A DNA stretch of 64,000 nucleotides from Capsulimonadaceae bacterium. Its GTDB lineage: Bacteria > Armatimonadota > Armatimonadia > Armatimonadales > Capsulimonadaceae. The stretch spans positions 1,952,001-2,016,000 of the forward strand of contig OZ244065.1 in the NCBI GenBank assembly GCA_965215505.1. Reading direction: 5' to 3'. A model generated the notes under the pieces. The model made no database searches. It was not told the DNA's origin and saw only the letters and a list, made by a program, of their open reading frames with translations. Both the position numbers and the translations under genes were made by a program. Shown piece by piece: positions 32,367 through 39,718 of the stretch. Positions within the stretch are counted from its first letter, which is position 1. Every line of letters begins with the position of its first letter.

Positions 32367-32882
32367 CTACAGAGTCCTCACCAAGTCCACGATCGTCTCG
32401 TCACCCTGGTGGTGACTGCCGTCGGAGGATGTGAACTGCCAATGCTTCAGGTGGGGTTCGGATTGGAGTTGTCGGTAGCCTAATCTGAGGTAGAGCGCCT
32501 GTGCCTCAGCATTGCCGGGAACATCCACGGCGATGTACAGGCTGTCACTGCCGCCGTCCTTCGCGATCGTCTCCATGCCACGGATGAAGAACGAGCCGTA
32601 ACCCTTACGTCGCTGTTCCGGCAGGACGAGGAGGTCAACGATCTGCGGCAGGTGCAGCGTGTCCCCTGCATCCGACCAGTGGGAAGGGCGCGAAAAGACC
32701 AGGCAGGCGAAGCCGATGACCGCTTCCGCTTTGGTCAGCACAAGGTATCGGAAGCCGCGCGGAGTGGCGGCGTCCCGGAGGCGGTCGCGGTGAATCGCCT
32801 CGGGGGATTTGAGTACCGTAAGGATCGGTAGGTCCTCAGCCCGCGCATCGCGGACGGCAAGAGTGTCACTCGGGTGCTGCAT
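32367..32882 (-). CDS. GNAT family N-acetyltransferase
   Basis: LLVLPEQRRKGYGS and N..AQALY.RLGY motifs. Confidence 0.88.
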   Translation of the reverse strand: MQHPSDTLAVRDARAEDLPILTVLKSPEAIHRDRLRDAATPRGFRYLVLTKAEAVIGFACLVFSRPSHWSDAGDTLHLPQIVDLLVLPEQRRKGYGSFFIRGMETIAKDGGSDSLYIAVDVPGNAEAQALYLRLGYRQLQSEPHLKHWQFTSSDGSHHQGDETIVDLVRTL

Positions 32883-36653: not shown

Positions 36654-38090
36654 TTATTCCGGGCGCAGGGGCTGGCCGATGCGGTGGATCTTGATGAAAT
36701 TGGTGCTGCCGGGCCGGCCCACGGGGACGCCGCCGGTCAGGACCACCACGTCGTCGTTTTTGACCAGTCCGGTCTGCTCGGCGGCATCAATGCTGGCCTG
36801 CATCATGCTGTCCGAGTCGTCGGCGATCTCGACCAGGACCGGATGGACGCCCCAGACGAGGGCCAGCCGCTGGTACGTCTCGGGCAGGTTCGTGGCGCAG
36901 ATGATGGGCGCGCGGGGCCGGTAGCGCGAGACGACGCGGGCCGTCCTCCCGGTGGCCGAGGCGGTCAGGATGGCCGTACAGTTCAGGTCGTGCGCGATGT
37001 CGCAGGTGGCCTGTCCGACCGCGCCGGTGATGGACTGCCCGGTCTCGAGGTGCGTCTTCTCGTCGAGTATCTTGCCGTAGTCCAGCGACCCCTCGGTGTG
37101 GGTGGCGATCTTCGCCATCATGCGGACGGCCTCGAACGGGTACAGGCCGACCGCCGTCTCGCCCGAGAGCATGACGGCGTCGGTGCCGTCGAAGATGGCA
37201 TTCGCCACGTCGGACACCTCGGCGCGGGTCGGGCGGGGGTTGCGGATCATCGAGTCCAGCATCTGGGTGGCCGTGATGACCGGCTTGCCGGCCCGGTTGG
37301 CCTTGCGGATCAGCATCTTCTGGATGACCGGCACCTCGTCAATCGGCACCTCGACGCCGAGGTCGCCGCGCGCCACCATGATGCCGTCCACGGCCTCCAT
37401 GATGGCGTCAATGTTCTGGACCGCCTCATGCTTCTCGATCTTGGCGATCAGCGGGATCTTGGCGCGGGCGGCCTCGCAGACCCCGCGCAGCACGGCGATG
37501 TCGCTGGCCGTCCGGACGAACGAGGCGGCGACGTAGTCCACCTTCTGCGCGATGCCGAAGCGCAGGTCGTCCAGGTCCTTGTCGGTGACGGCGGCGATGG
37601 GCAGCGAGACGCCCGGCACGTTGACGCCCTTGTTGGACGACAGCAGGCCGCCGACGACCACCTCGCAGACGAGGGCGCTGGACCGCTTGGATTTGACCCG
37701 CAGCTCCAGCAGCCCGTCGTCGAGCATCAGGTGTGTCCCCGGCTTGACCGCCTCGAAGATCTCGGGGATGGGCAGGTTGACCTGGTTCTCGTCTCCCGGC
37801 ACGTCGTCCAGGGTCAGCGTGATCTCCGCGCCGGGCCTCAGCAGGACGCCCTCGCCGGCGATGGTGCCGACGCGCACCTTGGGGCCGGACAGGTCTTGCA
37901 GGAGTGCGAGCGGCGTGTTCAGGTCGCGGGCGATGGTACGGAGGTGGCCGATGACCTCGGCGTGCTGCTCGTGGGAGCCGTGGGAGAAGTTGAGGCGCGC
38001 GACGTTCATCCCCGCTTCCACGAGGTGGCGCAGGTTTTCGGGGCTGCGGGAGGCAGGCCCAATGGTGCAGACAATTTTGGTTCGGCGCAT
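36654..38090 (-). CDS. pyk: Pyruvate kinase
   Basis: RTKIVCTIGPAS, ARLNFSHG, AKIE, MVARGDLGVE, ATQML and MLSGETA motifs. Confidence 0.98.
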   Translation of the reverse strand: MRRTKIVCTIGPASRSPENLRHLVEAGMNVARLNFSHGSHEQHAEVIGHLRTIARDLNTPLALLQDLSGPKVRVGTIAGEGVLLRPGAEITLTLDDVPGDENQVNLPIPEIFEAVKPGTHLMLDDGLLELRVKSKRSSALVCEVVVGGLLSSNKGVNVPGVSLPIAAVTDKDLDDLRFGIAQKVDYVAASFVRTASDIAVLRGVCEAARAKIPLIAKIEKHEAVQNIDAIMEAVDGIMVARGDLGVEVPIDEVPVIQKMLIRKANRAGKPVITATQMLDSMIRNPRPTRAEVSDVANAIFDGTDAVMLSGETAVGLYPFEAVRMMAKIATHTEGSLDYGKILDEKTHLETGQSITGAVGQATCDIAHDLNCTAILTASATGRTARVVSRYRPRAPIICATNLPETYQRLALVWGVHPVLVEIADDSDSMMQASIDAAEQTGLVKNDDVVVLTGGVPVGRPGSTNFIKIHRIGQPLRPE

Positions 38091-38138
38091 CAGTGTGGGG
38101 GCCTTCGCGTGGGCGGCGTGTCGGGACGCTGCTTGATT

Positions 38139-38198
38139 ATTATAACCGATTACATCTCGTTCGTCAACATTGACGCGCATTCGGAACTATGTTACCAT
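38139..38198. promoter_or_regulatory. Back-to-back divergent sigma70 promoters (pyk and aspartyl protease)
   Basis: Minus: TTGACG(38167-38162)-17-TATAAT(38144-38139). Plus: TTGACG(38170)-17-TACCAT(38193), then 6 nt to ATG. Confidence 0.75.
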
Positions 38199-38204
38199 AA
38201 AGGC

Positions 38205-39347
38205 ATGAAAACGCTGCTGCTTCTATGTGTTCTGTGGGCGGCGGGGCTGGGCCGCGTCTGCGCCCAGGACGCTGTGACTGTGCCGTTCCAGTTCACAGGC
38301 GGTCATATTTTCGTACCCATCAGCATCAACGGGCAGGGACCGTTCACGGCGCTCTTTGACACCGGCAGTTCTTTGTTTCTGGTGACGCCCGCTCTCGCGA
38401 AGAGCCTGCATCTGGTGACGAACGGGGCGGCACGTGTGAACGGGCTGGGAGGGAAGACATTCGGAGCGGAAACGGCCGAGGCTGAAACCGTACAGATCGG
38501 CGGCGTCACGCTTCCCCATCCCGCCTTCGTCGTGGTTGACTTGGGGGAGGTCAGGGTCAATGCCGTCATCGGCGCTGAGATGCTGCGCCGTTTCGTCGTC
38601 CGGATAGATTACGACGCGCGCCTCCTGACCCTGACGCGCCCCGACAGGTTCGTCTACCGGGGCGGCGGAGTCGTGCTGCCCCTCCGACTGCACGGCGACA
38701 CTCCCGCCGTAGACGGGGCGGTGGACGGCGTCCGGGGCCGGTTCACCCTGGATACGGGGGCGGTGGGTGCCCTGGACCTGTTCGCCCCGTTCGTCCGGGC
38801 ACATGACCTGCGCCACAAGTACGCGGCGGGCTTCACCGGTACGACGGGGGTGGGCCTCGGCGGGGTCATGCAGGCGCAGTCCGTCCGCGTGGGAACCCTG
38901 ACGCTGGGTGCCGCCGAGGTGCCGGACGTCGCGACGGGCCTGTCTGCCGATCAGGGAGGGGCGTCTTCGGCGGCGGACATCGCGGGGAACATCGGGGAGG
39001 CCGTGCTGCGGCGGTTCAACCTGACCTTTGACTATGCGCACGGGCAGGTGATCTTGGAGAAGAACACCGGCTACGGCAGGCCCGAAGACGGCCACGCGGG
39101 GCTTGGGCTGGAGCCGCAGGGGCGGGCGTGGCGCGTGGTCAGCGTCACCCCGGACGGTGCGGCGGCGCAGGCGGGAATCAGGGAGAGCGACTGGGTTATT
39201 CAGATTGCGGGGAAGGATGCCGGGCAACTGTCCCCCGCCGCGCTCTCGGACGTCTTCCACCGGCCCGTCGGCAGGAAGGTTTGGCTGCTGCTCCAAGGGG
39301 GCGGGCAGAGACGGCTCGTGGCGGTGACGCTGGGGAGAGTGCCGTGA
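38205..39347 (+). CDS. Secreted double retropepsin-like aspartyl protease with C-terminal PDZ
   Basis: Signal peptide MKTLLLLC; two DTG motifs (FDTGSS, LDTGAV); PDZ-like tail (AAQAGI..D). Confidence 0.88.
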   Translation: MKTLLLLCVLWAAGLGRVCAQDAVTVPFQFTGGHIFVPISINGQGPFTALFDTGSSLFLVTPALAKSLHLVTNGAARVNGLGGKTFGAETAEAETVQIGGVTLPHPAFVVVDLGEVRVNAVIGAEMLRRFVVRIDYDARLLTLTRPDRFVYRGGGVVLPLRLHGDTPAVDGAVDGVRGRFTLDTGAVGALDLFAPFVRAHDLRHKYAAGFTGTTGVGLGGVMQAQSVRVGTLTLGAAEVPDVATGLSADQGGASSAADIAGNIGEAVLRRFNLTFDYAHGQVILEKNTGYGRPEDGHAGLGLEPQGRAWRVVSVTPDGAAAQAGIRESDWVIQIAGKDAGQLSPAALSDVFHRPVGRKVWLLLQGGGQRRLVAVTLGRVP

Positions 39348-39358
39348 TGGGGGCGGGG

Positions 39359-39456
39359 GAGGGCGCGGAGGGGAAAGAGGGCGCGGAGGGGAAAGAGGGC
39401 GCGGAGGGGAAAGAGGGCGCGGAGGGGAAAGAGGGCGCGATGAATCGCGCCCCTAC
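39359..39456 (+). repeat. 18-bp tandem repeat (4 units) running into a GTAG REP
   Basis: (GAGGGCGCGGAGGGGAAA)x4 followed by GAGGGCGCGATGAATCGCGCCCCTAC. Confidence 0.9.
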
Positions 39457-39482: not shown

Positions 39483-39559
39483 TAGCCCATCGGGGATTTG
39501 AACCACCGGTTTCCGCGCCGAGAAGCGCGGCGTCCTGGGCCGGGCTAGACGAATGGGCC
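39483..39559 (-). tRNA. Non-canonical tRNA-Glu-like gene (8-nt anticodon loop, bulged T-stem, no encoded CCA)
   Basis: Minus strand GGCCCAT TC GTCT AGCCCGGCCCA GGAC G CCGCG CTTCTCGG CGCGG AAAC CGG(T)GG TTCAAAT CCCCG ATGGGCT A folds as a cloverleaf with a Glu-type D arm. Confidence 0.8.
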
Positions 39560-39602
39560 GTCTCGGGAGGGAGTATACCTGAGAAGATGTCAAGAAGCCG
39601 AT

Positions 39603-39718
39603 GCGGGCGGTTGAAACCGCGCCAACAAAAGCACAAAGTCTGCCTCCGCAGACTAAGACCGGTCCTGAACCTGCGAAGGCAGGTTTCGTGAACTCGTTGC
39701 CGCGACTTCAGTCGCCCG
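39603..39718. repeat. Composite palindromic repeat (GGCGGTTGAAACCGC / CCTGCGAAGGCAGG type)
   Basis: Outer arms GGGCGGTTGAAACCGCG / CGCGACTTCAGTCGCCC with inner hairpins GTCTGCCTCCGCAGAC and AACCTGCGAAGGCAGGTT. Confidence 0.65.

Follow-up and report, generated by a model that had tools for sequence, protein, structure and literature searches.

A conserved tRNA-Glu(CUC) paralogue with an eight-nucleotide anticodon loop and a bulged T stem in Capsulimonadaceae: a candidate for a function outside ribosomal protein synthesis

The tRNA gene

The window analysed here is a 64-kb stretch of DNA (positions 1,952,001 to 2,016,000 of contig OZ244065.1) from the genome of a bacterium of the Capsulimonadaceae, a family of soil bacteria in the phylum Armatimonadota; this genome consists of a single contig of 6.18 Mb with a G+C content of 66.5%. 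On its minus strand, at window positions 39483-39559, lies a 77-nt gene of the tRNA-Glu type with the discriminator base A and without an encoded CCA, in the following called the odd tRNA. ARAGORN, one of the programs named for checking the gene in the original prediction, which had been made from the letters of the DNA, does call a gene at this site and finds no other tRNA gene in the window, though it leaves it unnamed as "tRNA-??? anticodon (ct)". The gene and its two oddities are as follows.

39483-39559, minus strand: odd tRNA gene (ARAGORN tRNA-???; Rfam RF00005, 39.8 bits; cloverleaf paired in 24 variants)
39518-39525, minus strand: 8-nt anticodon loop CUUCUCGG, with the Glu anticodon CUC at 39520-39522 and the extra base 5' of the anticodon
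39505, minus strand: bulged pyrimidine of the T stem, with pair 51-63 on one side and pair 52-62 on the other; it is U in this genome and C in other variants

The cloverleaf can be read on the minus strand just as predicted: an acceptor stem of 7 bp including G1-U72, a D arm with the stem GUCU/GGAC, an anticodon stem of 5 bp (CCGCG/CGCGG), an 8-nt anticodon loop that reads CUU-CUC-GG and a T arm with the stem CGG-U-GG/CCCCG and the loop UUCAAAU (TTCAAAT in the DNA). In a permissive search of 501 bases the tRNA model of Rfam (RF00005) matched the gene over model positions 1-71 of 71 with 39.8 bits (gathering score 29, E 5e-07). The canonical tRNA-Glu genes of the same genome score 54.7 and 53.5 bits. 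That the odd tRNA lies about 15 bits below them, that ARAGORN cannot assign it and that a default Rfam search over the whole window does not list it are the points in favour of an artefact of assembly or base calling, or else of a pseudo-tRNA in decay, the latter having been one of the possibilities of the original prediction.

The folding energy of the single sequence is unexceptional (z = -1.19; 23 of 200 shuffles fold equally well), and the support for a tRNA structure therefore comes from the score of the tRNA model together with covariation, not from thermodynamics alone. RNAalifold arrived independently at the same cloverleaf including the bulge, and it closed the anticodon arm further via C32-G38 and a U-G pair, leaving a loop of 4 nt. 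C32 and G38 are complementary and invariant, and with the U-G pair inside, which is found in most variants, the anticodon loop could close to 6 or 4 nt.

Conservation and covariation

When 61 related genomes, the host genome included, were searched with BLAST, full-length copies with both oddities were found in 31 of them at 91-100% identity, so that the two features do recur in relatives, as the original prediction had proposed to check. The carriers comprise 22 of the 23 other members of the same genus and all members sampled of the genera g2 (1/1), g4 (2/2), g5 (2/2), g7 (2/2) and g8 (1/1); the weaker matches (73-77%), which came from the genera g6, g9 and g10 and the sister family, represent canonical tRNA-Glu genes. 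A second scan used the exact pattern of the bulged T arm and the 3' acceptor strand on one genome per species from 185,579 species and matched 30 contigs, many of them from the same genomes as the 31 assemblies. Twenty-nine of these contigs are labelled Armatimonadota, Armatimonadetes, Armatimonadales, Capsulimonadaceae or Capsulimonas, and the remaining one, labelled as a Janthinobacterium metagenome-assembled genome, is taken to be mis-binned. From these labels the odd tRNA is a lineage-restricted sequence cluster. There were no matches in viral contigs, and a phage origin was therefore rejected.

For metagenomes the pattern was confined to the 8-nt loop and the last part of the D arm, leaving the T arm unconstrained. 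It returned 29 stretches, of which 6 are chance matches in unrelated sequence and 23 are the odd tRNA. The T-stem bulge is present in all 23, which indicates that the 8-nt loop and the bulge always occur together. The contigs of four public runs list no difference in base or length at either odd position.

In alignment A1 the 61 loci reduce to 24 distinct sequences, each with the 8-nt loop and the T-stem bulge. In a cloverleaf with this loop and one bulged base all 504 of 504 cells form standard pairs, and compensatory changes are seen in five pairs, namely four of the anticodon stem and pair 49-65, which changes from C-G to A-U in 3 variants. None of 500 shuffles reached the observed values, and slid controls gave 0-2 such pairs. 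Column 55, the bulge, is U or C while the neighbouring positions remain paired.

The case for selection made in the original prediction is thus borne out, and the 24 variants with compensatory changes in five pairs exclude its pseudo-tRNA and the sequencing error by which it might have been refuted. Identical architecture in 31 independent assemblies, 30 contigs of the species collection and 23 metagenome contigs, the unanimity of the four runs at the odd positions and the lack of a single broken pair in 504 cells leave an artefact or a decaying gene hardly conceivable; constraint on the gene is not relaxed either (see below).

The anticodon loop reads CUUCUCGG in 21 of the 24 variants and CUGCUCGG, CGUCUCGG and CCCUUCAG in one each. 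A Glu anticodon is retained at loop positions 4-6 of every variant (CUC in 23, UUC in 1), always with a purine on its 3' side, and anticodon and purine survive four loop substitutions in one lineage. The two positions immediately 5' of the anticodon are occupied by UU, UG, GU or CC, one lineage having CCC in front of the anticodon; since both bases vary, U33 is not conserved. Measured against a canonical elongator tRNA, the odd tRNA has neither a 7-nt anticodon loop with U33 nor an uninterrupted 5-bp T stem, and it does have a cloverleaf maintained by covariation.

Canonical tRNA-Glu genes and the origin of the odd tRNA

The host genome contains, as the original prediction had suggested looking for, a separate canonical tRNA-Glu(CUC) gene (32741-32812) and also a canonical tRNA-Glu(UUC) gene (4993122-4993193). 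Both are of a 72-nt type that is only about 60% identical to the odd tRNA. The 72-nt type was matched in 30 of 30 carrier relatives, and among non-carriers in 1 of 6 genomes of the family and 1 of 24 genomes of the sister family. Twenty loci of this type were fetched, of which 14 are canonical CUC and 6 canonical UUC genes, and the canonical CUC isoacceptor was thereby confirmed alongside the odd tRNA in 13 carriers and in the host genome.

Pairwise identity over the same 14 genomes averages 94.1% for the odd tRNA and 83.4% for the canonical CUC isoacceptor. The odd tRNA is the more conserved of the two in 82 of 91 genome pairs, and its acceptor stem has no variable columns versus 10 in that of the canonical tRNA. 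A paralogue under tighter constraint than the working isoacceptor is unusual. The stricter conservation points to a job outside ordinary protein synthesis, and together with the invariant acceptor stem it fits a partner that reads the sequence and not just the pairing.

The nearest relatives of the odd tRNA are canonical 74-nt tRNA-Glu(CUC) genes of sister genera and of the sister family, with 70-75% identity. The two share the type of acceptor stem, a GUCUAG...CCCAGGAC D arm, the anticodon CUC, the discriminator A and a T loop UUCAAAU or UUCGAAU. The odd tRNA differs by an extra anticodon-loop base, A37G, C38G, two extra D-loop bases and a bulged, register-shifted T stem. The only gaps in the alignment are the two D-loop bases and the one anticodon-loop base, all extra in the odd tRNA. 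The loop is CU-CUC-AC in the canonical homologues versus CUU-CUC-GG in the odd tRNA, which places the extra base 5' of the anticodon. The variable loop and T arm have the same number of bases in both types; what the original prediction had described as an extra U in the T stem is therefore indeed a bulge, though not an added base, for substitutions shift the pairing register while the length equals the canonical one. From its canonical counterparts the odd tRNA also differs in its locus and its lower Rfam score.

We infer that the 72-nt type gave rise to a new CUC isoacceptor, and that the old 74-nt CUC tRNA was freed to change. In the order of events proposed here, which is one possible order, the ancestral 74-nt tRNA-Glu(CUC) would have been relieved of decoding once the 72-nt-type CUC isoacceptor had arisen, and the old copy would then have fixed three kinds of change: A37G and C38G along with an additional loop base on the 5' side of the anticodon, the two D-loop bases, and the bulged, register-shifted T stem. 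Direct descent at the same locus was considered and rejected: the 74-nt genes of nine more distant genomes lack all five neighbour proteins within ~1.5 kb. The pyruvate-kinase loci of five non-carrier genomes of the family contain no tRNA.

In two non-carrier genomes of the family (loci L033, G032:C1:1366568-1369641, and L037, G028:C174:1-1690) the 74-nt tRNA-Glu(CUC) gene is convergent with an RqcH-type (NFACT_N) gene and lies about 200 nt or less from its 3' end; in a third genome the two genes are 12.6 kb apart on one contig. This proximity may be chance synteny.

Some further tRNA genes outside the window were noted in passing. A second unusual Glu-like tRNA (L075:175-248, minus strand, equal to G000:C1:4660474-4660547) adjoins a tRNA-Cys gene. 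It has an acceptor stem of 8 bp (or G-1:C73, as in tRNA-His), the anticodon loop ACUUCAU with C at position 33 or, in an alternative register, the 8-nt loop CACUUCAU, and an Rfam tRNA score of 54.9 bits. As a partner of the odd tRNA it was rejected, and it is to be regarded as accessory, since only 3 of the 61 genomes have matches. At G000:C1:2219562-2221409 a cluster of tRNA genes for Arg, Asn, Met, Gly, Phe and Lys, six in all, lies within 1.9 kb, none of them with a recognisable housekeeping promoter, and at 1176009-1176100 and 3525896-3525987 ARAGORN calls a Gly(ccc) and an Arg(ccg) tRNA of 92 nt, which is unusually long for these types. The cluster and the two long calls may be mobile-element tRNAs or false calls.

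A role on the ribosome

The odd tRNA could be an unusual but otherwise ordinary decoder of GAG, or a natural +1 frameshift or quadruplet (GAG-N) decoder at programmed sites. SufJ-type suppressor tRNAs, which have a base inserted 5' of the anticodon, shift the reading frame, and in favour of such a role the 8-nt loop holds a conserved Glu anticodon with a 3' purine in a tRNA whose L-shape elements are intact. Loops of 8 nt do work in translation (PMC7609411), and yeast mitochondrial tRNA-Thr reads triplets with one.

A plain GAG decoder would be redundant because a canonical CUC isoacceptor is always present, and the odd tRNA is nonetheless the more conserved of the two. Also against decoding are the lack of a conserved U33, with CCC 5' of the anticodon in one lineage, and the bulge within the T stem. 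Against quadruplet reading, the fourth base varies (U, G, C) and has no known matching site. A crude scan of the genome for +1 junctions without a start codon and with at least 50 coding codons on each side, by which a short upstream frame like that of prfB would be missed, gave 13 candidates, 4 of them with GAG in the shift window; at this low sensitivity none was a Pfam-supported frameshift site. In two of the four the upstream protein is complete (a metallo-beta-lactamase fold protein and D-Tyr-tRNA deacylase), and in the other two there is no Pfam family. The natural frameshift suppressor of the original prediction thus found no support in the scan, and both the defect of the T stem and the lack of a conserved U33 speak against it. 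We consider any of these ribosomal roles rather unlikely.

Promoter, neighbouring genes and repeats

The features around the odd tRNA are the following.

39572-39579, minus strand: conserved -10-like element that reads GGTATACT and precedes the mature 5' end by 12 nt
39588-39593, minus strand: TTGACA hexamer, 10 nt from the -10 element and thus mis-spaced; orthologous upstream regions lack it
39637-39654, minus strand: in the interval from the GT-C gene to the tRNA, a terminator-like hairpin with a T-rich tail, from a consensus scan and weak (1 site versus 0.6 expected in shuffles)
39433-39452, minus strand: 8-bp GC hairpin GGGCGCGA-UUCA-UCGCGCCC, 30 nt downstream of the tRNA, a possible terminator with 57 copies in the genome
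39737-41245, minus strand: upstream neighbour, a GT-C (PMT-family) glycosyltransferase (Pfam PF02366, 28.2 bits)
36654-38180, minus strand: syntenic downstream neighbour, pyruvate kinase (Pfam PF00224, 431 bits)
~38200-39347, plus strand: Asp-protease/PDZ gene that, in this genome only, separates pyruvate kinase from the tRNA

The observation in the original prediction that TATACT and TTGACA are only 10 nt apart agrees with the sequence (TTGACA at 39593-39588, TATACT at 39577-39572). In nearly all distinct orthologous loci examined GGGTATACT, GGTATACT or GGGTATAAT is found 7-30 nt upstream of the tRNA, without a -35 element, and the same type of -10 also lies 5' of two tRNA-Met genes of the host genome. 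The housekeeping tRNA genes of this genome have TTGACA-17-TATAAT; a scan with the sigma-70 consensus found no promoter for the odd tRNA. Judged from these elements, the odd tRNA is probably a separate and weakly expressed transcription unit. A pairing of its anticodon loop with its own 5' leader (CCGAGA) was dropped as a candidate because it is not conserved in the orthologues.

Comparison of 31 loci gave the gene order metallophosphoesterase, GT-C glycosyltransferase(s), tRNA, pyruvate kinase, small gene and RNase G, all on one strand. Clusters of the neighbours were counted in 21 (640-aa GT-C), 22 (pyruvate kinase, downstream) and 16 (RNase G) of these loci, and in most relatives pyruvate kinase follows the tRNA directly, within 80-320 nt. 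The original prediction had reasoned from two GT-C envelope genes on the same strand to a role as Glu donor. This reason falls away, and a functional link with GT-C was rejected, because the nearer GT-C gene is present in only 8 of 23 genomes of the genus versus 22 of 23 for the odd tRNA and because the terminator-like hairpin lies between the two; synteny alone remains.

In most loci the odd tRNA keeps a fixed place, flanked on one strand by the same two genes, and this speaks for a different possibility, that of an uncharged, tRNA-shaped regulatory or structural RNA, which would titrate or stabilise GluRS or another tRNA-binding protein or serve as an RNase P/Z signal that splits the GT-C and pyruvate-kinase transcripts. 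It is also favoured by the 7-bp stem with a 4-nt loop that the anticodon arm can form, and mascRNA with GlnRS provides a precedent for a tRNA-like RNA that acts by binding to an aminoacyl-tRNA synthetase (PMC9976931). A processing signal, however, needs acceptor and T arms only, whereas D loop, anticodon triplet and variable loop are conserved too. The odd tRNA moreover has its own conserved -10 element and, in this genome, the terminator-like hairpin upstream, and in many loci pyruvate kinase has a strong promoter of its own (TTGACG-17-TATAAT) downstream of the tRNA, which is therefore not needed to join or split one transcript. With the Glu anticodon retained through four loop substitutions as a further point against it, we think an uncharged RNA unlikely.

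The palindrome downstream of the tRNA (20 nt, GC-rich, 8-bp stem and 4-nt loop) is also found 3' of the odd tRNA in loci L001 and L016. Contig depth at 39424-39456 is very high in all four public runs, and with the 57 genome copies this marks the palindrome as a REP-like dispersed repeat of the lineage. Two other repeats lie close by. At window positions 39359-39439, on the stretch from the tRNA to the convergent Asp-protease/PDZ gene, a unit of 18 nt is perfectly repeated in tandem (4.5 copies), beginning inside the 3' arm of the palindrome; the unit occurs nowhere else in the genome. At 39600-39645, upstream of the tRNA promoter, contig depth is in the thousands in 3 of the 4 runs while the 20-mers have only 1-5 copies in the genome; the stretch probably belongs to a repeat family common in related organisms.

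Charging signals and candidate partners

The identity set of Escherichia coli GluRS consists of the anticodon U/C34-U35-C36, A37, U11-A24, U13-G22 with A46, and no residue 47 (PMC9976931). In the odd tRNA the anticodon is CUC or UUC in 24 of 24 variants, U11-A24 is kept in all 24, 14 variants have U-G at pair 13-22 and the other 10 have C-G, and the variable loop has 4 nt (ARAC). Since U11-A24, pair 13-22, A46 and the lack of a residue 47 are retained, the core of D arm and variable loop, together with the anticodon, matches the published set, and the retention of the Glu anticodon through four loop substitutions points to reading of the GluRS type. The host genome has one GluRS-type gene and no GlnRS, from which the GluRS should be non-discriminating; no second GluRS was found in it.

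Of proteins that could use a Glu-tRNA outside decoding, the host genome encodes GluTR, one FemAB-family protein, an LPG_synthase_C protein, an L/F-transferase and an RqcH-type NFACT protein. Its EF-Tu-like complement consists of two tuf copies, SelB, CysN and the usual translational GTPases, and no extra EF-Tu-like or dedicated elongation factor was found in this genome; one otherwise unexplained GTP_EFTU match we take, from its sequence, to be CysN. In a comparison of distributions none of FemAB, LPG_synthase_C, GluTR and NFACT_N/RqcH matched the odd tRNA. NFACT_N, for example, is found in 59 of 61 genomes, and LPG_synthase_C was excluded as a partner because two carrier genera lack it. Searches for the N and C domains of LanB gave no match, which is uninformative since neither search matched any control genome.

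Proposed function

Altered in the odd tRNA are both surfaces used in decoding, namely the geometry of the anticodon loop with U33 and the T stem, and the canonical isoacceptor covers GAG. We therefore propose, at about even odds and from sequence comparison, that the odd tRNA is a functional, lineage-specific tRNA-Glu(CUC) paralogue that is charged with glutamate, excluded from translation and used by a non-ribosomal consumer. Candidates for this consumer present in the genome are GluTR of the C5 tetrapyrrole pathway and the single Fem-type aminoacyl-tRNA transferase.

The odd tRNA would be transcribed from its own weak promoter, processed and provided with CCA, and the single non-discriminating GluRS would charge it with Glu via the CUC/UUC anticodon and the core of U11-A24, U13-G22, A46 and no residue 47. 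From the position of the bulge and the geometry of the loop we infer poor binding to EF-Tu-GTP and to ribosomes: with a bulge where the T stem binds EF-Tu and with an anticodon loop that is distorted and partly closes on itself, the tRNA would be kept off both. Glu would thereby be reserved for a consumer that reads the invariant acceptor stem and the D and T loops.

Several observations weigh against this proposal. Position 37, an A in the GluRS set, has A in a single one of the 24 variants and G in the other 23. The L-shape elements U8-A14, G18 G19 and T54-A58 are all intact, as a decoder would also need. Among the possible consumers, FemAB is present in 36 of 36 genomes of the family, including the 6 without the odd tRNA, and in 4 of 24 genomes of the sister family; GluTR is near-universal (57 of 61 genomes); and LPG_synthase_C is missing from the genera g2 and g7, both of which carry the tRNA. 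No candidate partner gene, FemAB included, is linked to the tRNA in the 31 loci compared. The RNA evidence consists of contigs (up to 4.6 kb) of two metatranscriptome runs, which indicate presence only and may reflect DNA carry-over. Finally, normal decoding is possible with an anticodon loop of 8 nt, yeast mitochondrial tRNA-Thr being an example, and working tRNAs with T-stem bulges exist, for example selC* tRNA-Cys (PMC7609411).

A bolder version of the proposal, which we regard as quite improbable, is that of a dedicated Glu carrier for a reaction independent of translation, with a co-evolved partner that reads the invariant acceptor stem and the odd arms. At its boldest the tRNA would feed the mRNA-independent peptide tailing of RqcH type, or it would be a natural decoder (GAG-N quadruplet or +1) whose delivery does not involve normal binding to EF-Tu; either role, if true, would put a chromosomal bacterial tRNA to a new use.

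A literature search outside supplementary files found no description of the odd tRNA. To our knowledge, Glu-tRNA is the one aminoacyl-tRNA that translation shares with an essential cofactor pathway, that of the tetrapyrroles via GluTR. How the pool of Glu-tRNA is partitioned between its uses is called an open question (PMC4284751). If the proposed exclusion from translation is correct, the variants amount to a natural experiment on what a tRNA may change once decoding is not required: the size of the anticodon loop, U33 and the continuity of the T stem are changeable, and the anticodon triplet, the D-arm core and the acceptor stem are fixed. The family Capsulimonadaceae is named in cultivation-related papers. 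It has a cultured type species, which would make experiments feasible.

Comparison with known tRNAs

With the +1 frameshift suppressors SufB2, SufJ and similar tRNAs the odd tRNA shares the 8-nt anticodon loop. The suppressors of this kind are mutants of decoding tRNAs that were selected in the laboratory and have normal T stems, unlike the odd tRNA, for which the crude scan also found no gene that requires a frameshift.

The single unpaired base of the T stem has a counterpart at the same place of the 5' strand (51a) in selC* tRNA-Cys and in the minor 8/4 tRNA-Sec (PMC7609411). In contrast to these tRNAs, which are of the 8/4 acceptor/T type and have their own synthetase or factor, the odd tRNA is 7/5 with a bulge, and no dedicated synthetase or factor was found for it in the host genome.

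Yeast mitochondrial tRNA-Thr(UAG) likewise has a natural, conserved 8-nt anticodon loop and is derived from a tRNA of different function (PMC7609411; PMC3113583). It is active on the ribosome as the sole decoder of the reassigned CUN codons, whereas the odd tRNA coexists with a canonical decoder and has the T-stem defect in addition.

The closest parallel in function would be the non-proteogenic tRNA-Gly species of staphylococci, which bind poorly to EF-Tu and the ribosome and are preferred by the Fem transferases (PMC7826273). NP1-NP3 of S. aureus and S. epidermidis are, like the odd tRNA, extra, lineage-restricted isoacceptors beside the normal ones, with altered D/T arms and an altered geometry of the anticodon stem-loop while the synthetase identity is kept (PMC7826273), and both the staphylococci and the carriers of the odd tRNA have a Fem-family transferase in the same genome. 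The odd tRNA differs in that it is a tRNA for Glu rather than Gly and belongs to another phylum. The staphylococcal tRNAs have a changed T-loop UUC triplet, no bulge and no 8-nt loop, whereas the odd tRNA keeps TTC and G18 G19; weak binding to EF-Tu and use by a transferase have been measured for the former and would be expected for the latter. Non-proteogenic tRNAs, by which are meant tRNAs retained solely for the supply of a non-ribosomal pathway, are reported to have been detected so far only in S. aureus and S. epidermidis (PMC7826273), and thus in one genus and for one amino acid. New in the present case would be a putative tRNA of the non-proteogenic type for glutamate, from another phylum and with structural changes not reported together, and if the proposal is correct it would provide a second, independent example of such tRNAs in a distant phylum.

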